Positions 2,400 to 13,901 are shown, counted from the first letter of the stretch. The stretch: 64,000 nt of DNA from Candidatus Pacearchaeota archaeon (GCA_017609535.1 JAFCDU010000001.1:4782-68781); one strand, 5' to 3'. Numbers and translations are program-made. Notes: generated from the sequence alone by a model not told the origin.

Positions 2400-3626
2400 T
2401 CACAACCCCAAACTTTCAATCATAATACTCTCAACTTTCCCATGTAAATTACTTGGAATTGACAGCTTAATCTCCCTCGTCCGCCCATGCCTGCCCTTAG
2501 AAATCACTTTAGCATTAATCAATCCAAGCATATCAATTTCAGCAATAATATCTGATACCCTCCTCTGAGTCAAAACCTCTGTCTTGATTCTATCGCACAG
2601 CTCCTGGTAATAATTATAAACATCACCTGTAAAAATCTTATCAAAATTCTTAGATTGCTTAATCTGTTTAGTCAGCTGAAAAATAGAATATAAAACAAGC
2701 TGAAACTGCTTCGGCTCTGTCTCAACAATATCTAAAATCTTGTCCCTCTCTATTTTTTCATTAGCCAAATCAATAAATCTCAGCTCAACATTCTTACTGC
2801 CCTCCCTTTCAGACAACTCTCCTGCAATTCTCATTAAATCCAATGCTCTTCGCGCATCACCATGCTCTCTTGCTGCATATGCTGCGCATTTCGCAATAAC
2901 CCCCTCATCCACCACCCCCTCTTTAAACGCTTTCTTGCACCTCTCCTGCAAAATATCCTGCAGCTGCAACGCATTGTAAGGTGGAAAAACAATCTCCTCC
3001 TCGCCAAGAGAACTTCTTACTCTCGGATCAACATTATCTAAGAAAGTTACATCATTTGAAATGCCAATCAAACTAATTTGTGCCTTGCTCAATTCTGAAT
3101 TCAATCTTGTCAAATTATAAATAAACCCGTCTGAAATTTTATTAACAGCATTATCAATCTCATCAAAAATTAAAACAACTAACTGATTTTTATTGTCAAT
3201 TAATTCAATAAATTTAGAATAAACATGGTCCGTAGGAAGCCCTGTTGCAGGAATGCTCCCTCCAAGCTCCTTAATCAAAGCAGCCAAAATCCGATATTCA
3301 GTATCTGCAATTTTCTTCAGTTTGCAATTAAGATACTCAATCCTAACATCCACCCCCATCTGATTCGCCTTTTTCAATAATTCATCCCGAACATACTGAA
3401 CAGATAATGTCTTTCCAGTCCCTGTCTTCCCATACAAAAACAAATTACTTGGCCTCTCTCCTCTTAAAATTGAAGCTAAAATTGAAGCAACCTGTTCAAT
3501 CTGCTTATCCCTATGTGGAATGCTTTCAGGAGTATGATTCGCCTGCAAAATACTCTTATCTCTAAATAAAGAATTCTCAACAGCAGATTCAAAAATATTG
3601 TCTAACTCAACAGCCATCTTCCTCAA
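2400..3626 (-). CDS. orc1: Orc1/Cdc6 replication initiator (AAA+ ATPase with C-terminal winged helix)
   Basis: Walker A YGKTGTGKT, Walker B LVVLIFDEID, 408 aa. A GGGGGTTGAGGAAG Shine-Dalgarno-like element precedes the ATG. Confidence 0.9.
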   Translation of the reverse strand: MRKMAVELDNIFESAVENSLFRDKSILQANHTPESIPHRDKQIEQVASILASILRGERPSNLFLYGKTGTGKTLSVQYVRDELLKKANQMGVDVRIEYLNCKLKKIADTEYRILAALIKELGGSIPATGLPTDHVYSKFIELIDNKNQLVVLIFDEIDNAVNKISDGFIYNLTRLNSELSKAQISLIGISNDVTFLDNVDPRVRSSLGEEEIVFPPYNALQLQDILQERCKKAFKEGVVDEGVIAKCAAYAAREHGDARRALDLMRIAGELSEREGSKNVELRFIDLANEKIERDKILDIVETEPKQFQLVLYSIFQLTKQIKQSKNFDKIFTGDVYNYYQELCDRIKTEVLTQRRVSDIIAEIDMLGLINAKVISKGRHGRTREIKLSIPSNLHGKVESIMIESLGL

Positions 3627-4049
3627 CCCCCTTTTAATCCTTCACAAAATACCCCCAATCTATTTAAACTTTCCTATACTTGAAAATATAAATTATCACC
3701 CCCATTTCAAATGGAGCAAAAAACTCAAAAAATCTAAAAAATCAATCTTAAATCGTCGAAAACATCAAAAAACCCCTACCCCCTTATTTCCTCTCCAAAT
3801 GAAATTAAAACAAACAAATTAACAACTAAAAGAATTCCATATAAATATAACATAACTATCAAACAAAAAAACAGCAATAATAAATCCCTAACTATTCAAC
3901 AAAAAACAAGTAATAATAAATCCATAATTGTATATAATTAATCTAACAAAACCTTCAACAAAAACTATAATAATCCATAATTCACATAAAACCCTTTTCA
4001 TATAATTTCACATAAAAAAATATTATAAAAAATAATTCTACAAAACTAA

Positions 4050-4125
4050 CTAAAACCAACTAAAACCATAAATCTAAAACCATAATCAATCAATAATAAC
4101 CATTTAACAAAACTATCTAAAACCA
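4050..4125. repeat. Four dispersed copies of CTAAAACCA(A/T)
   Basis: Copies at 4050, 4060, 4074 and 4117, read directly. Confidence 0.7.
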
Positions 4126-4199
4126 TATCTGATTTAACATATCCAAAAAACATAGAGAAATAGGCAGTATATAATAAAACAAAAAACATAGAGAAAAAG

Positions 4200-4237
4200 T
4201 TATAATTAATGGTTATAATTAATGGTTATAATTCAAT
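4200..4237. repeat. Tandem repeat TTATAATTAATGG, about 2.9 copies
   Basis: ttataattaatgg ttataattaatgg ttataattcaat, read directly. Confidence 0.8.
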
Positions 4238-4359
4238 ATATATAATAAAATATATAAAATCTTATAAATAAAAAATAAAAAACCCTCCAAACCTCCCTTT
4301 AAAAACATTTCCAAAAGAAATCATAGGGTGGGAGAACATATCTAATCATTTACAGAAAC

Positions 4360-4369
4360 ATTTATAAAA
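4360..4369 (+). promoter_or_regulatory. TATA-box-like element for the PRC-barrel gene
   Basis: catTTATAAAAac about 22-28 nt upstream of ATG 4390. Confidence 0.3.
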
Positions 4370-4389
4370 ACAATCAATTTAATTCTAAA

Positions 4390-8612: not shown

Positions 8613-8897
8613 ATGCCAAAAATTAGCCAAGAAAAAAAACAAAAAATCCAAGAACAAATTTTATTTTATTTATATAATTCCTTCCCAACACCAAAGTTCA
8701 TATCAGATATTTCTAAAGAATTAGCAAGAGATGAGGAGTTTATAAAAATCCTAATAAATGAATTACTAAAAAAAGGGCTTGTTATAAAAATTGATAAAAA
8801 TCCAAAAGGCATAAAATACCTAAAAAGGCTTCGCTGGAGACTCTCAAATAAAGCCCATGAAGCATATTCAAAACAGCAAAGACTTAATCACAAATAA
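8613..8897 (+). CDS. Small winged-helix-like DNA-binding protein (hypothetical)
   Basis: 94 aa, basic, with a predicted HTH segment ISDISKELARDEEFIKILINELLKKGLV. Confidence 0.4.
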   Translation: MPKISQEKKQKIQEQILFYLYNSFPTPKFISDISKELARDEEFIKILINELLKKGLVIKIDKNPKGIKYLKRLRWRLSNKAHEAYSKQQRLNHK

Positions 8898-8927
8898 AAT
8901 TATAAACAATGACCCTCTTCTAAAAAA

Positions 8928-9545
8928 ATGGACCCAATTAAAGAAGCATTTCAAAAAGTCAAAGCTGAAATCTTAGATTTAAAGAAAGAAATTCAAGAAA
9001 TAAAACAAGAACTTCAACAGACAGACAATCCAACAGACAATCCAACACATATTCCAACACTTATCACTCTTTCAGAGCCTCTGAAACAGCCAAATTTGGC
9101 ATTTTCCACAAGAAACAGGGGGGTTCCAACAGACAATCCAACCAACAAACCAACACACCAACAGACAGACAAAAGCAATGAAAATCTATCATATCAAGCC
9201 AATTTTGATGATTTTGAACAAGCCCGCAAAATCTTAGATTCCTTAGATAACATAAAAAAGGAAATTCGCCTTAAATTTAAGCGCCTAACACCTAAGGAAA
9301 TGCTCGTTTTTTCCACAATTTATCAATTAGAAGAGAGAAATATAGAAGAGATTACCCATAAGATTTTGGCAAATATCCTTAATTTAAGTGAATCCTCTAT
9401 TAGAGAATATATAAATAAACTTACAAAAAAAGGGATCCCCATACTAAAAATACGCCAAAATAACAGGAAAATCCTCTTAAAAATCTCACAAGACCTCAAA
9501 AAAATTGCCAGTTTATCAACGATAATCCAATTAAGAGAACTATAA
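8928..9545 (+). CDS. Protein with N-terminal coiled coil, PTDNPT low-complexity repeats and C-terminal HTH (MarR/TrmB-like)
   Basis: 205 aa. Repeats TDNPTDNPTHIPT ... PTDNPTNKPT. C-terminal LTPKEMLVFSTIYQLEE...SESSIREYINKLTKKGI. Confidence 0.5.
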   Translation: MDPIKEAFQKVKAEILDLKKEIQEIKQELQQTDNPTDNPTHIPTLITLSEPLKQPNLAFSTRNRGVPTDNPTNKPTHQQTDKSNENLSYQANFDDFEQARKILDSLDNIKKEIRLKFKRLTPKEMLVFSTIYQLEERNIEEITHKILANILNLSESSIREYINKLTKKGIPILKIRQNNRKILLKISQDLKKIASLSTIIQLREL

Positions 9546-9641
9546 TGTCTGATTAATCGGTATACCGATTAAAAATATCCATCTTCTCTCCACTAAATTT
9601 CAATATCATCTCCTAATAAAACCTTCCTATGAAATCTAATG

Positions 9642-10250
9642 TTATTTCTCACCTTTCTTTGATTTTTTACCTGATTTAACTCTCACTTTTACACTTTTTA
9701 ACAAGATTTCCTTCTTGTTTTCAGGAATATACAACCTCTTTTTACCATTTTTTTCCCTTATCTCTCCTATCAAACCCTCACTTTTCTGTTTTATAGCATT
9801 TACTTGCCCTCTTATTGTGCTTTTATCCTTCCCTAAAAGAGCTGCCAAGTCCTCATAGCTTAGTTTTAACTCACTATTCAACAAAGCCCATACAATTGCC
9901 CTCTCCATTACTGTAAAATTAGATAAAATGGCTGTTTGGACACCCGTTTGGACAGGTGTTTGGACACCTTCAACACCTGTTTGTTTATCAACAGCTGTTT
10001 GTTGCTGTTTGGACAAAAACCATGGATTTTGGACAGAGACAATATTTCTTAATTCTTTCATCTCTTCTTGAAGTTGATAAATTAAATCTTTGAGAGATGA
10101 AATCTCATCTTCATAATTCTTATTTTTTCCGTCAATATGAGTAATCCATTGTCCTACTTTAACAAAATCCTCTCTTACTGCATCAAAAGATTTATGCATA
10201 TCATTCTTTAATTTTTCAATCTCCCTCTTTTTTCTAAGAAAACCAAACAT
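9642..10250 (-). CDS. Protein with N-terminal coiled coil, VQT repeats and C-terminal HTH
   Basis: 202 aa. QTGVEGVQTPVQTGVQT repeats are encoded by four copies of TGTCCAAACA. C-terminal winged-helix-like FTVMERAIVWALLNSELKLSYEDLAALLG. Confidence 0.5.
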   Translation of the reverse strand: MFGFLRKKREIEKLKNDMHKSFDAVREDFVKVGQWITHIDGKNKNYEDEISSLKDLIYQLQEEMKELRNIVSVQNPWFLSKQQQTAVDKQTGVEGVQTPVQTGVQTAILSNFTVMERAIVWALLNSELKLSYEDLAALLGKDKSTIRGQVNAIKQKSEGLIGEIREKNGKKRLYIPENKKEILLKSVKVRVKSGKKSKKGEK

Positions 10251-10331
10251 CTTAATAATTCCTGTTTGACGATATTTATAAATATTTCGTAAATATTTGC
10301 ATTAGGCAATGAAAAATTTTTATTTAAAATT

Positions 10332-10356
10332 TGTTCAAACACCTGTCCAAACACCC
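10332..10356 (+). repeat. Doublet of TGT(T/C)CAAACA motifs, intergenic copy 1
   Basis: tgttcaaacacctgtccaaacaccc. The same 10-mer occurs as a doublet at 12554-12575 and four times in reverse orientation inside the 9642-10250 CDS (9934-10015). Confidence 0.7.
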
Positions 10357-10388
10357 AACAATTAAATTTATCACGGCAAGTTCTTCTC

Positions 10389-10417
10389 TTTCACAAACCT
10401 AACCTAAGTGCATAAAA
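10389..10417 (+). repeat. 29-bp direct repeat, copy 1 (TTTCACAAACCTAACCTAAGTGCATAAAA)
   Basis: Identical to 11078-11106. Confidence 0.85.
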
Positions 10418-10495
10418 TCGCCGGAAGAAAAATAAAAATAAGGCCGCAAAAATGATAAACAGCAAATTTATAAACTTCAAACATCTTAAAATAAA

Positions 10496-10783
10496 ATGAG
10501 ATTTAATAAGCGGATTATATATTCCGGAGCAATCTCTTTAATTATTTTTTTCTTAGCAATGTCCATTAAAATAATCCCTTGCCAGACAGCTCCAAATGTT
10601 CCAAACCCCCAATATTCTTGGAAAATGTGCTCATTAAATCCCGACGCTGAGATAAAAACAGGAACTAAAAAACTATTCTTCGGTTTTAGTGAAAGCTTGT
10701 CAGAAACATATTTCATTGTCCTTTTAGTAACATTTATATTCTCAATGATACTATTACATTTTATAGGAAAAAGGAACATTTAA
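10496..10783 (+). CDS. Hypothetical small membrane protein (alternative: the overlapping minus-strand ORF 10486-10779)
   Basis: 95 aa with hydrophobic N- and C-terminal segments. A TATA-like aatttataaac lies about 25 nt upstream. It shares strand with the following genes. Overlapping ORFs exist on both strands, so the assignment is uncertain. Confidence 0.3.
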   Translation: MRFNKRIIYSGAISLIIFFLAMSIKIIPCQTAPNVPNPQYSWKMCSLNPDAEIKTGTKKLFFGFSESLSETYFIVLLVTFIFSMILLHFIGKRNI

Positions 10784-10819
10784 AAATATTAAAAACAAAT
10801 AAAATAAAGGAGGTGAAAA

Positions 10820-11014
10820 ATGAAAAAACAAGGAGCTGGTCCAGTGGGCATTGTTTTTTGGTTAGTTGGAATTATTGTTTCATTGGCAGTTGGCTTTGGC
10901 CTAATCAGTGGTAGTTTAGCTGTACCATACATAGGCCCAGTCAATCAAATAACTGGCTGGATTGTAGTGATTGGAACTGTTATCAATGTAATACTGGCCA
11001 TATTCAGTCAATAA
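10820..11014 (+). CDS. Small two-TM membrane protein (hypothetical)
   Basis: 64 aa. A strong AAGGAGGTGA RBS lies 6 nt upstream of the ATG. Glycine-rich TM helices. Confidence 0.55.
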   Translation: MKKQGAGPVGIVFWLVGIIVSLAVGFGLISGSLAVPYIGPVNQITGWIVVIGTVINVILAIFSQ

Positions 11015-11077
11015 ACTTACAATTTTCATTTTATTCTTTATTTTCTGATTTATTTCTTTTTCTTTTATTTAAACGAT

Positions 11078-11106
11078 TTTCACAAACCTAACCTAAGTGC
11101 ATAAAA
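11078..11106 (+). repeat. 29-bp direct repeat, copy 2
   Basis: Identical to 10389-10417. Confidence 0.85.
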
Positions 11107-11171
11107 AAATCCCCATAATAAAAAAATTAATCAAAAAATCCAAGAATTCTTCATAAAATACATAAAATTTA

Positions 11172-11227
11172 TATACTTAGGGCACCCTAAATAAACAGAT
11201 ACAACTAAATATAGATCCCTAAGTATA
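11172..11227 (+). promoter_or_regulatory. Inverted-repeat site upstream of the serine recombinase gene; candidate recombination or operator site
   Basis: TATACTTAGGG-CA-CCCTAAATA forms a palindrome with a 2-bp centre. A third half-site CCCTAAGTATA, an exact inverse of the first, lies 35 bp downstream and ends 5 nt before the ATG at 11232. Confidence 0.45.
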
Positions 11228-11231
11228 CAAA

Positions 11232-11990
11232 ATGACTTCATCAAAACCTCTCGCAGCAATTTATGTTAGGGTTTCAACACAAGAACAAGCCCAGCAAGGT
11301 TTTTCCCTCGCAGCACAACAAGAATCCTTGGAAAATTATGCAAAAGCCTTAGGTTATGAAATTTTTAAAATTTACAAGGATGAAGGAAAATCTGCAAAGG
11401 ACATAAAACACCGGCCAGCAATGGTCCAAATGCTTAAAGATGCAGAGAGCAAAAAATTTCAAGCAATATTTATTTACAAACTTGACAGATTTTCCAGAAG
11501 CTTAAAAGACCTTATCCTGACAATAGACAAACTAAAAGAATGGGGCATAGATTTTGTCTCTCTGCAGGATAAAATAGAAACTGCCTCTGCTTCAGGAAAA
11601 CTCATGTTTCACATAATCTCCGCATTCGCAGAATTTGAACGAAACATCATTGGTGACAGAACAAAATTCGGCATGGAGCGAAAAGCAAAAGAAGGAGGAT
11701 TTATAACAAAACCTCCAAAGGGCTACAGGCTAATAAACAAACAACTCGTGGTTGATGAAAAAGAAGCAGAAAGAGTCAAACAAATATTTGAACAATTTCT
11801 AAATACCAAGATATCCCTAACACAATTAGCAAAACAAAATAACATGACAACAGCAGGAGTTAAAAAGCTCCTCCAAAACACAACCTACATAGGAAAAGTT
11901 AAATTCGCAGGAAAAGAAAGCCAGGGAAATCATAAACCCATTATTTCTTTAGGACTATTCAACAAAGTTCAGAATAAATTAAATCTCTAA
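11232..11990 (+). CDS. Serine recombinase (resolvase/invertase catalytic domain plus recombinase domain)
   Basis: N-terminal catalytic motif AAIYVRVSTQEQ (nucleophile Ser), DGKSAKD, RxxxxLDRFSR. C-terminal recombinase-domain-like region ending NTTYIGKVKF...GNHKPIIS. Confidence 0.8.
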   Translation: MTSSKPLAAIYVRVSTQEQAQQGFSLAAQQESLENYAKALGYEIFKIYKDEGKSAKDIKHRPAMVQMLKDAESKKFQAIFIYKLDRFSRSLKDLILTIDKLKEWGIDFVSLQDKIETASASGKLMFHIISAFAEFERNIIGDRTKFGMERKAKEGGFITKPPKGYRLINKQLVVDEKEAERVKQIFEQFLNTKISLTQLAKQNNMTTAGVKKLLQNTTYIGKVKFAGKESQGNHKPIISLGLFNKVQNKLNL

Positions 11991-12521
11991 AACAGACAAT
12001 CCAACCCCCTTCTCTTTAGCCCAGCTAAGCAAAGCAAGCAACTCCTTCCCCCGCAATTCAATAAGAATTTCAGTATCCCCTTCATCACAGCGCTCAATTT
12101 CTTTATCACCCAAAGGAGGGGTCGCATAAAAATTATTAAATTTACAAGTATTATCGCAATATAAAATCCTATTTGTAACTCGCTCAACATCATCTTTTAA
12201 AATCTCAGGAATGTCATCAATTAGTTCAAGAGTTTCATTCAAACGTTCAGCAACCCCCCCTTCTTTAATTTTTTCTCTAATAAATTCTGGCAAATTTGTC
12301 AATTCTTCTTCATTATATTCCTTTAAAGTCAAATTTCCCTTAACATAATCCAAACAATAATCATTTGAATCGCATTTCACAAATAAATCCTCTTTCTCAT
12401 CCGTGACACAAACCCGCAAAACCTTAAAAACATAAAAATAATAAAAATAAACTCCAATAAACAAGATTAATAAAACTAAAATACCTACAATAATCAAAAA
12501 TATTTTCAAACCCCTGCCCAT
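11979..12521 (-). CDS. N-terminally anchored cysteine-containing protein (hypothetical)
   Basis: 180 aa with one N-terminal TM helix, then an acidic domain with 7 Cys. Confidence 0.4.
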   Translation of the reverse strand: MGRGLKIFLIIVGILVLLILFIGVYFYYFYVFKVLRVCVTDEKEDLFVKCDSNDYCLDYVKGNLTLKEYNEEELTNLPEFIREKIKEGGVAERLNETLELIDDIPEILKDDVERVTNRILYCDNTCKFNNFYATPPLGDKEIERCDEGDTEILIELRGKELLALLSWAKEKGVGLSVLEI

Positions 12522-12553
12522 TTAATTATTTAATAAGGCCTATTTATAAATGT

Positions 12554-12575
12554 TGTCCAAACACCTGTCCAAACA
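12554..12575 (+). repeat. Doublet of TGTCCAAACA motifs, intergenic copy 2
   Basis: tgtccaaacacctgtccaaacagcaa. Confidence 0.7.
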
Positions 12576-12595
12576 GCAAAATTTAAATCATCTCG

Positions 12596-13129
12596 TTGTT
12601 TAAACAACCTATGGTCTGTGAAAAATGTGGTTATGCAGAAGAAAAAGAAGCTGAAAAATTCTCTAAAAAACTATGTAAAATCTGTTTTCACTTTGCACCA
12701 GATGATAAACAACTGTTCAAACAATATATAAAAGAAAAAATTGATTGGAGAATTTTAGATACTTTTAGAAAATATCCAAAAGAAAATCCTCTTAAATTAG
12801 GGATGCAAAAAAAAGCAAAACATGGACAGCCAATGACCCGCCCTCCACTCGGCTATTCTCTCAAAGATGGAACGCTCAAACCAAATCAGGATGCATCAAA
12901 AGTCCATTCTCTTTTTAGGGTTTTTCTTGAAAAAAACTATTCCTTAAATTCTCTGGCAAAAAATTACGGGTTATCAGTAAATGGTATAAAAAAAATTCTC
13001 ACAAATCGCACTTATCTTGGAGAAATCAAATTCGCAGGCTCCCTGCATAAAGGGAATCATCATCCCTTAATCTCACCAGAAATCTTTTACGCAGTCCAAA
13101 GAAAATTGCGAACAATCTGTTCAAAATAA
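12596..13129 (+). CDS. Zinc-ribbon plus recombinase-domain protein lacking the catalytic domain (paralog of the C-terminal half of the 11232 recombinase)
   Basis: N-terminal CEKCG...CKIC. C-terminal TRPPLGYSL...TNRTYLGEIKFAGSLHKGNHHPLIS aligns with KPPKGYRL...NTTYIGKVKFAGKESQGNHKPIIS of the neighbouring recombinase. Confidence 0.55.
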   Translation: MFKQPMVCEKCGYAEEKEAEKFSKKLCKICFHFAPDDKQLFKQYIKEKIDWRILDTFRKYPKENPLKLGMQKKAKHGQPMTRPPLGYSLKDGTLKPNQDASKVHSLFRVFLEKNYSLNSLAKNYGLSVNGIKKILTNRTYLGEIKFAGSLHKGNHHPLISPEIFYAVQRKLRTICSK

Positions 13130-13160
13130 ATATAAAATAACCATAAATTACAAAAATCAC

Positions 13161-13901
13161 TTACTTTTTTGCTCTACTCAAACTATTCTGAATTTTTGAA
13201 AGATTAACTGGCCCAACTTTGTCAGGATCTGCCCCAACATATGTTGCAATATCCTTTAAAAAATCAATATATTTCATAGTTACATCAAATTTTTGAACTT
13301 CTGGAAGGTAATCCATTCGTCCTTGTGTATTTTTTCCAGCAGGTTTAAGTCTCACGTAATTTAAAAGAACATTATCTATGGTTGGCATATACTCAAAATT
13401 AATAAGATGAACATGCCCCTTATTTGCTAATCTATTAAGTGTATTGTTTCTATGGTGCCCTTTTTCTGCAAATCCAATAATCTTATAACTAAGGTGCTTG
13501 GCTAATTGCCTCCTATAATCTTCAAAAGTCCCCCCAGTTCTTTCTGATTTTTTCAAAGCCCTTTGTTCAAGAGATTTTCTAAATTGCCTATAACCCTTTA
13601 CAGCAGAAGCACCAGAAAGAACCTCATCTAAACAAATTATTTTCAGCTCTTCATCAGTTTCATACTCTTCAAAAAAATTATCATACCATCTGGACATTAA
13701 CTCATCTCTTTTTCTAAACCTGCTTGAATTTGGCGGGTATTCTACAATTTCTAATGGAAACTTTCTATCAACTATTTTTAAAATATCAATAAAAGGCACA
13801 GCCCCAACTACTGGAGCAAATACAACATCAGGTTTTTCCATATGTATAATGTCTGAAGCCTTCTTAAAACCCTTAACAAGATTCTCTATACTCCCTTTCA
13901 T
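13161..13901 (-). CDS. Phosphoribosyltransferase (PRTase)-fold protein of unknown function
   Basis: 246 aa. PRPP-binding-like motif KIICLDEVLSGASA, preceded by VVFAPVVGAVPF. Confidence 0.4.
   Translation of the reverse strand: MKGSIENLVKGFKKASDIIHMEKPDVVFAPVVGAVPFIDILKIVDRKFPLEIVEYPPNSSRFRKRDELMSRWYDNFFEEYETDEELKIICLDEVLSGASAVKGYRQFRKSLEQRALKKSERTGGTFEDYRRQLAKHLSYKIIGFAEKGHHRNNTLNRLANKGHVHLINFEYMPTIDNVLLNYVRLKPAGKNTQGRMDYLPEVQKFDVTMKYIDFLKDIATYVGADPDKVGPVNLSKIQNSLSRAKK

Follow-up and report, generated by a model that had tools for sequence, protein, structure and literature searches.

A conserved CA-centered palindrome in the promoter region of a chromosomal serine recombinase gene of Pacearchaeota and Woesearchaeota

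Tn3/gamma-delta resolvase represses transcription from res, and archaeal repressors such as MDR1, Phr, LrpA and TrmB classically have their operators at or just downstream of the TATA box. Here we describe a palindromic element that resembles both arrangements and lies directly upstream of a serine recombinase gene, c0, in 64,000 nucleotides (nt) of DNA from Candidatus Pacearchaeota archaeon (GCA_017609535.1, JAFCDU010000001.1:4782-68781), a stretch referred to in its full length as the window. The element is conserved, has a fixed geometry, is linked exclusively to recombinase operons, changes together with the type of recombinase, and overlaps at the sequence level with an archaeal promoter. 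Very probably it is a promoter element of some sort, conserved and bound by protein. With moderate confidence, we further propose that the recombinase itself binds the palindrome and represses its own operon.

The closest parallels are the res sites of Tn3 and gamma-delta, together with ParA-res of RK2 and the 'six' site of the beta recombinase, which likewise stand immediately 5' of the gene for their recombinase, in DNA that is shared with its promoter. The likeness to Tn3/gamma-delta res would extend to a symmetric site with a central 2 bp, the crossover position in res, to a neighboring inverted pair of different spacing, and to the autorepression that would be expected of such a layout. 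In contrast, Tn3 resolvases are proteins of ~185 amino acids with a C-terminal HTH_7 domain, whereas c0 has a recombinase domain of the large serine recombinase (LSR) type; the gene described here has a syntenic place on the chromosome and seems to be passed on vertically within an archaeal clade, rather than carried by a transposon or plasmid; and there is one full palindrome and one looser pair with no third site. With the archaeal operators the element shares a palindrome that abuts the TATA box and covers the DNA up to the presumed transcription start, where blocking of TATA-binding protein (TBP) and transcription factor B (TFB) or of RNA polymerase would be expected. It differs from them in that the putative binder is a site-specific recombinase or a DNA-binding paralogue, and not a classical helix-turn-helix (HTH) regulator. 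The res-like, auto-operator arrangement is already known; what is new is its setting, a chromosomally fixed family of short LSR-like proteins in small-celled (DPANN) archaea, accompanied by paralogues that lack the catalytic domain and by an array of additional motifs (M sites). The parts of the element and the two genes most closely concerned have the following positions in the window.

11164-11175, plus strand: TFB recognition element (BRE)-like purine run and TATA box (AAAA TTTATATA), the last A of which is the first base of the arm ACTTAGGG
11172-11182: first arm of the palindrome, TATACTTAGGG; a longer version of the palindrome spans 11172-11193
11183-11184: central dinucleotide, CA
11185-11193: second arm, CCCTAAATA
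11175-11192: palindrome P, ACTTAGGG-CA-CCCTAAAT (consensus ACTTAGGG-CA-CCCTAAGT)
11196-11202, plus strand: block C, consensus CGTGAAC, degenerate in the window as CAGATAC
11217-11229, plus strand: block D (the 'third half-site'), CCCTAAGTATACA, consensus CCCTAAGTTYACA, in the putative 5' untranslated region
11232-11990, plus strand: c0, serine recombinase of type A, 252 amino acids, with catalytic and recombinase domains
12596-13129, plus strand: c0', a paralogue without the catalytic domain, consisting of a Cys-rich N-terminus, the end of helix E and a recombinase domain

From position 11164 the window reads AAAATTTATATACTTAGGGCACCCTAAATAAACAGATACAACTAAATATAGATCCCTAAGTATACAAAATG. The two arms are complementary at 9 of 11 positions, the mismatches being C11176/A11191 and A11173/A11194, and a perfect inverse of the first arm, CCCTAAGTATA, occupies 11217-11227, 34 nt past the first arm and 4 nt before the ATG at 11232. 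A first-pass annotation of this DNA had proposed an inverted repeat around CA upstream of a serine recombinase gene, and both are present with small corrections of coordinates (the downstream gene matches PF00239 at 150 bits and PF07508 at 37 bits). Its third half-site is indeed a perfect inverse, although the distances of 35 bp and 5 nt that it gave are each too large by one. Four of the five copies of the heptamer CCTAAGT in the window fall within 10403-11224. By the statistics of the window alone the inverted repeat is not beyond chance: perfect 11 bp inverted repeats spaced by no more than 40 nt number 4, against 3.85 expected from Markov-1 simulations, and at least two matches to the 11-mer with at most one mismatch occurred in 14 of 100 shuffles of the window. 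We conclude that the palindrome does not owe its presence to chance because the same palindrome and third half-site recur, at a fixed spacing, upstream of orthologous genes.

This recurrence was documented in a scan of genomes with the recombinase, which returned 47 archaeal loci and distant relatives in Clostridia and Bacilli, and in a profile of 94 distinct elements taken from aligned upstream regions. A unit with the order TTTATATA / ACTTAGGG-CA-CCCTAAGT / CGTGAAC / CCCTAAGTTCACA (at a fixed 41 nt offset) / AAAGAGG / ATG heads the recombinase operon in ~45 of the 47 Woese- and Pacearchaeota genome loci, which come from different metagenome-assembled genomes (MAGs), and is present once per locus, which supports the earlier reading of palindrome and third half-site as recombinase-linked sites. 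Altogether, the palindrome is conserved ahead of the orthologous recombinase gene in more than 100 DPANN genomes or contigs, in flanks that are otherwise unalignable. The consensus of the 94 elements is C-r-n-AAaATTTATATACTTAGGGCACCCTAAGTagaCGTGAACtAGc-(N9)-aCCCTAAGTTcACA-(N3-5)-AAAGAGGAAAATG; none of them varies in the inner six base pairs of the arms, and block D stands 41 nt from the first base (A) of ACTTAGGG in 92, the window being the sole case at 42. In about half of the loci the element lies ~70 nt before the recombinase ATG, and in the others it precedes one to six translationally coupled open reading frames (ORFs), at distances of up to ~3 kb, with the last stop codon overlapping the recombinase start (TAAAATG). 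These extra ORFs are located 3' of block D and of the Shine-Dalgarno (SD) motif, away from the center of the palindrome. The element also stays with the recombinase in loci L026, L029, L030 and L042, where the HTH protein genes c1-c3, neighbors in most loci, are not nearby. The relatives in Clostridia (L048-L059) were rejected as a comparison, their conserved upstream inverted repeats ending in T-runs and resembling terminators of the preceding gene.

A search that made no use of TATA or gene information gave the same association. The bare 18-mer ACTTAGGGCACCCTAAGT was run against 241 M metagenome records, and 80 loci, a set selected for CA and TG centers, were analyzed. The ~70 low-GC contigs among them all carry the full element; wherever the gene-side flank exceeds ~600 nt the recombinase is present, and the orientation of the gene always matches. 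The half-sites thus recur widely upstream of recombinase operons, whereas the attB-like or partner copies that the first-pass annotation had envisaged were not found in any of the sequences searched. Eight further matches, on high-GC contigs (L088, L090, L108, L112, L115, L145, L152 and L154; GC 0.65-0.74), have unrelated bacterial contexts, and another match is on a viral contig (L083, GC 0.57). Several of the high-GC contigs have a second, related copy close by (for example GTTAGGGCACCCTAAC in L112), with no recombinase homologue present, and the match is probably to an unrelated bacterial operator with the same core.

A BRE/TATA consensus, aAAATTTATATA, is highly conserved across the 94 elements, the conserved AAAATTTATATA is a standard archaeal BRE/TATA, and the end of TTTATATA is the first base of ACTTAGGG in nearly all cases, so that the left arm overlaps the TATA box. 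Since window genes with recognizable TATA boxes are mostly leaderless, with TTTATA(A/T)A 19-24 nt before the ATG, we infer that transcription of the recombinase operon starts at ~11195-11200, in block C. By the same analogy, the palindrome would occupy about -22 to -5, between TATA box and start, and block D would lie ~20-30 nt into the operon leader. As in the TATA-proximal operators of archaea, a palindromic site therefore abuts the TATA box and reaches the presumed start. In most relatives the leader has a strong AAAGAGG SD motif. In the window (11193-11231) this motif is absent through a 12 nt deletion between AAAAT repeats (compared with L021, 3950-4000), a loss shared by a 99%-identical contig, L171; the window lineage also has a degenerate block C and, separating the palindrome from block D, a unique 1 nt insertion, with the recombinase ORF intact.

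In c0, the match to PF07508 (cut-off 21 bits) follows helix E, and the protein ends at residue 252. Neither a zinc ribbon or coiled coil nor any further Pfam match was found past the recombinase domain, and the Pfam search gave no match to PF02796 (HTH_7). The closest solved relative is the catalytic domain of TP901-1 integrase (E 9e-30), in which YTRVSTTNQ aligns with YVRVSTQEQ of c0 and DRLSRS with DRFSRS, as befits a resolvase-type catalytic domain with the serine nucleophile motif; the SPbeta integrase is matched over residues 21-233. The best NCBIfam families, CcrB, CcrC and XisF, match with their N-terminal halves only and far below their cut-offs (for CcrB, 153 bits versus 900). Judged by these alignments, c0 is a short relative of the LSRs without zinc-ribbon and coiled-coil domains. 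Its catalytic domain is most similar to TP901-1 integrase, and its recombinase domain matches the SPbeta integrase. The att sites of these LSRs, a group that includes CcrA/B/C and XisF, are also imperfect inverted repeats with a non-palindromic central dinucleotide. It departs from these LSRs in size (~250 versus about 450-700 amino acids) and in the absence of the zinc ribbon with its embedded coiled coil; the site is ~18-26 bp where att sites are ~40-50 bp, no attP/attB pair was seen, and the gene is host-encoded at a conserved position. At E <= 1e-10 there are ~2000 homologues, and the best 120, from Woesearchaeota, Pacearchaeota and 'Nanoarchaeota' MAGs and metagenomes, are 76-84% identical to c0 (one is 99%). 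The exact protein of the window is not on record, its closest match being P0001 at 99%. According to a 2021 review, archaeal serine recombinases have 'never been fully investigated' (PMC8371274), and the literature searches that we made found no description of this family or system.

What a protein of this architecture would bind can be stated from its relatives. The recombinase domain of LSRs binds ~12 bp flanking the crossover dinucleotide, and a dimer of a protein with catalytic and recombinase domains would therefore need a site of ~24-28 bp with a 2 bp center. The sequence TATATACTTAGGG-CA-CCCTAAGTAnAC matches this prediction, and arms of 8-13 bp around a non-palindromic 2 bp center are the serine-recombinase-type geometry that had been recognized at the outset.

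A natural comparison is provided by a second clade of recombinases, type B (L046, L047, L172-L181), whose members share 42% identity with type A and 82% with one another. They occupy the same syntenic slot, between c1 and an operon that begins with ribosomal protein S9, and have the c1-c3 neighbors in common with type A. Upstream of type B genes, AAGGG-AA-CCCTT, 26 nt before block D, replaces TTAGGG-CA-CCCTAA, both arms being changed symmetrically; the TATA box and block D are mostly kept, the SD motif is kept in most loci, and P is lost. The paralogue c0', which matches PF07508 at 30 bits and is 39% identical to residues 123-250 of c0, is retained downstream of c0 in most loci, has a coiled-coil N-terminus in many genomes, and forms a single orthologous group over type A and type B loci (66% identity). 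It is a candidate second DNA-binding partner. Since the palindrome differs between type A and type B loci while c0' and c1-c3 are shared, it tracks the catalytic recombinase. A further product of type B loci is an HNH/zinc-ribbon protein; its recombinase domain shares 62% identity with that of type A c0 but only 32% with that of type B c0. A-like recombinase domains thus persist in type B loci, and with them the CCTAAGT-type half-sites, while the 2 bp-centered palindrome follows the catalytic protein. Both the persistence of the element with c0 where c1-c3 are not nearby and the change of palindrome with recombinase type point to the recombinase as the likely binder. A defined site of 18-26 bp and its type B counterpart offer a direct biochemical handle on organisms that are not culturable alone.

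In the model that we favor, the serine recombinase encoded downstream would bind the palindrome as a dimer, within the archaeal promoter of its own gene, and block D would offer an additional site to a protein with a recombinase domain, be it the recombinase itself or c0'. Occupancy of the site would compete with TBP/TFB and RNA polymerase, and the recombinase operon would be auto-repressed as a result. The symmetric, 2 bp-centered geometry would also permit strand exchange at CA; recombination would be secondary, no partner site having been seen. If the element acts as an operator only, it would be a clear example, in archaea, of transcription control by the DNA-binding domain of a recombinase. 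The first-pass annotation had suggested a crossover site plus accessory or autoregulatory sites. Its autoregulatory component fits best, given the overlap with the TATA box, and its crossover component is unsupported by any partner, attP or alternative junction. Several points weigh against our model. The binder could be c0' or another factor; the co-variation between type A and type B is essentially one evolutionary event, and is suggestive rather than conclusive; the transcription start is placed purely by analogy with leaderless genes; and blocks C and D are readable as an RNA hairpin as well. The window's own copy shows degradation in its downstream part, with a degenerate block C, the 1 nt insertion and the deleted SD motif, which indicates that the parts are not all indispensable.

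Among the alternatives, the one that survives best is a working crossover site, cut at CA, with strand exchange between two copies; we consider it possible, if on the unlikely side. The two copies could belong to sister or dimeric chromosomes, in a res- or dif-like reaction where blocks C and D would serve as accessory site II, or to the chromosome and an incoming circular element; in either case autoregulation would come as a by-product, as at Tn3 res. In its geometry the palindrome suits a site I of serine recombinases, with symmetric arms and a 2 bp center that, in ~100 elements, is CA, TG, CT, GA or AA and never a palindromic pair. The adjacent covarying pair GTGAAC ... GTTCAC, with its different spacing, resembles res sites of unequal spacing, a single site per locus suits dimer resolution, the catalytic residues look intact in a protein that is ~80% conserved, and a GGG-NN-CCC palindrome is present with both recombinase types. 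Against this reading, a partner copy is missing. No second palindrome was found in the window (at most two mismatches to the 14 bp core) or within ±4 kb in the 47 loci (381 kb of genome loci), and a scan of viral contigs with the looser ACTTAGGGNNCCCTAA returned no attP-like copy, only 26 chance-like matches of unrelated GC or context, none with a recombinase nearby except for one distant match, 7 kb away. No att pair with a common center was found in the window, loci, viral contigs or metagenome contigs, whole genomes being outside the search. Junction heterogeneity was likewise absent from the one population-level comparison, in which L171, the contig of P0001 and from the same population, has identical junctions. 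In setting out what would speak against a crossover site, the first-pass annotation had named a lack of other occurrences and of junction heterogeneity, both of which we find, combined with proof that the palindrome serves just as operator of the promoter, a function that we infer. Finally, the ORFs that intervene in some loci are downstream of block D and the SD motif, and not at the palindrome center.

Comparisons with chromosomal recombination sites lead to a similar assessment. XerS/difSL and XerH/difH also consist of one conserved site per chromosome region, directly upstream of a conserved chromosomal recombinase gene, but they involve tyrosine recombinases, central regions of 6-11 bp and sites at the terminus, whereas here a serine recombinase gene is found ~7 kb from Orc1/Cdc6. 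This proximity to Orc1/Cdc6 and to a candidate origin, and a GC skew that is negative on both sides of the palindrome with no change of sign there, are not terminus-like, and a dif-like terminus site was disfavored on these grounds. If recombination at the palindrome were nevertheless true, it would constitute a new housekeeping use of serine recombination.

The central dinucleotide is itself informative. CA and TG occur dispersed across the recombinase tree, and Fitch parsimony gives ~15 changes of center state (all types) among 77 sequences; for instance, the protein of L158 (TG) is 95% identical to those of L008, L009 and L122 (CA), and L011, L015, L024 and L025 are also relevant to flips. 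Neither TA nor CG, the single-step intermediates, was ever observed, with the qualification that the metagenome set was selected for CA and TG centers. Template switching at perfect palindromes is an established mutational mechanism, and inversion of the spacer by this route, rather than point mutation, is the simplest explanation of the CA/TG flips. The flips imply that the orientation of the center relative to its flanks is unconstrained.

A second alternative concerns blocks C and D, which could act in RNA as a 5'-terminal hairpin of the operon mRNA, affecting stability or translation, and leave the 18 bp palindrome as the only DNA site; we regard this as unlikely. GTGAAC of block C recurs in inverse form, at a spacing of 19 nt, as GTTCAC in the outer portion of block D. 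Among 83 distinct elements, 85% of cells pair, and double-sided changes number 48, compared with 23.6 ± 7.8 in shuffled data, where none of 500 shuffles reached the observed value, and slid controls pair at 13-40%. Because covariation exceeds both shuffles and slid controls, the symmetry is under selection. As DNA, GTGAACTAGG ... CCCTAAGTTCAC resembles another pair of half-sites, set further apart ('site II'). As RNA, the stem is present in the single-sequence minimum free energy (MFE) fold of 80 of 94 predicted leaders (mean -6.2 kcal/mol, z = -2.3), and the covariation includes G-U states (at one pair, GC 35, AU 23 and GU 18). Against the RNA reading, RNAalifold found no consensus structure in the predicted leaders, and the invariant CCCTAA, identical to the DNA half-site of the palindrome, would be located in the loop. 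Moreover, the stem leaves the SD motif uncovered, the leader of the window does not fold into it, and an Rfam search of region 9500-13500 found nothing at the element.

Sites related to the palindrome occur elsewhere at the locus. The 29 bp direct repeats that had been noted nearby exist, contain CCTAAGT, and belong to a related conserved motif family, M.

10389-10417, plus strand: M copy 1, a 29 bp direct repeat with the core AACCTAAGTGCA at 10401-10412
11078-11106, plus strand: M copy 2, identical to copy 1 at 29 of 29 positions and 62 nt upstream of the TATA box

These two copies flank a 689 bp segment with a 95-amino-acid ORF and a 64-amino-acid membrane ORF. M is a family of quasi-palindromes with the consensus [G/T]CACTAAG-nTAAC-CTWAGTG[C/A]AC. 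A profile search of 48 loci gave 89 hits, 84 of them on the recombinase strand and 76 between c1 and the element, with none downstream of c0. Copies are typically located 0-40 nt after the stop codon of a small plus-strand ORF, often for a membrane protein (c11, c13, c37), and ~60-110 nt ahead of the next ORF. M could be a binding site of recombinase-domain proteins, serving regulation or as accessory sites. An interpretation of M as TATA-plus-operator promoters was rejected, an upstream TATA-like box being found in 17% versus 10% of controls, with no clear enrichment. Two M copies, at 1585 and 2120 on the same strand, also flank an 84-amino-acid ORF in L183, an IMG/VR contig (GC 0.30) that is virus-like, with genes for DNA methyltransferases and a SWIM-type protein. 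Its 14 kb of sequence contain no recombinase homologue, and it could derive from a DPANN virus that has the motif in common with its host.

The palindrome could also be the operator of a different protein, the recombinase being merely regulated; the candidates are c0', as a DNA-binding domain turned transcription factor, and the winged-helix proteins c1-c3. We find this quite unlikely. It is true that c0' has the same kind of DNA-binding domain as c0 and that its coiled-coil N-terminus suits dimerization, that c1-c3 are HTH proteins adjoining the element in most loci, and that M motifs, found in several intergenic regions as well as on a virus-like contig, are more suggestive of a regulon than of a recombination system. 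Yet the palindrome changes with the catalytic recombinase, whereas c0' and c1-c3 are common to types A and B; the element is present where c1-c3 are not nearby; and c1 and c0' are themselves preceded by separate, TATA-proximal TGTCCAAAC repeats.

Of still lower probability, in our judgment improbable, is a broader version of the crossover hypothesis, in which the palindrome would be the crossover site of a host-encoded, vertically inherited module (c0 and its catalytic-domain-less partners) beside the replication origin of Woese- and Pacearchaeota, serving either Xer-free resolution of chromosome multimers or an integron-like capture, by a serine recombinase, of small-gene units bounded by M. 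The gene content of the M array varies among loci, and its motifs, in one orientation upstream of the promoter, are reminiscent of a cassette array. In the one informative replacement, between L008 and L009, homology runs ~50 nt beyond the M core (a single comparison, at 84% background identity), whereas gain or loss in an integron-like platform would break within the sites, and cassette breakpoints at M cores were rejected on this basis. Weakest of all is a functionless chance palindrome in AT-rich intergenic DNA, which the unremarkable within-window statistics would allow and which we give virtually no credence, being refuted by comparative data in the form of sequence and spacing conserved over more than 100 loci.

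With respect to the wider locus, the window is low in GC (~0.27-0.37) and archaeal. It encodes the ribosomal proteins S9 and L13 as well as a subunit of RNA polymerase at 14-16 kb, and it also has a replication initiator gene.

2400-3617, minus strand: Orc1/Cdc6 gene (NF001625, 505 bits versus a cut-off of 501)

Next to this gene (region 2400-4389) there is a 773 bp AT-rich intergenic region with direct repeats at 36 nt spacing (3845-3927 and 4144-4199), a candidate replication origin by its sequence features, ~7-8 kb from the recombinase locus. Gene-order clustering defines a conserved frame that begins with a PRC-barrel protein, c7 and the HTH proteins c3, c2 and c1 (c1 on the minus strand), continues through variable small ORFs, the element, 0-6 ORFs and c0, and ends with further variable ORFs, c0' and the S9-L13-L18e-RpoD operon on the minus strand. 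Within it, c0 is a syntenic, apparently vertically inherited gene in a variable hotspot, and is no obvious cargo of a mobile element. A scan of the window for sigma-70 promoters and terminators was discarded as irrelevant for an archaeon, and found no terminators. Apart from the element, the Rfam search gave one weak match, to the C/D-box sRNA-like family sR2, at 12068-12113 on the minus strand inside a 180-amino-acid ORF (19.7 bits versus a gathering threshold of 42, E 0.31), which is probably due to chance.

The conserved HTH proteins c3 (94 amino acids), c2 (205) and c1 (202), encoded at 8613-10250, always adjoin the variable region and have coiled-coil N-termini and low-complexity linkers of PT/QT repeats. 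A second motif family, TGTCCAAAC(ACC)TGTCCAAAC, is found at 10332-10352, 12554-12574 and 9931-9966. Its repeats are directly 3' of TATA boxes in the divergent intergenic regions c1/ORF95 and ORF180/c0', inverse copies of TGTCCAAAC occur within the part of c1 that codes for the repetitive linker, and related CTGTTTAAACAG-like motifs occupy the equivalent position in other loci. The TGTCCAAAC family may represent a separate operator.

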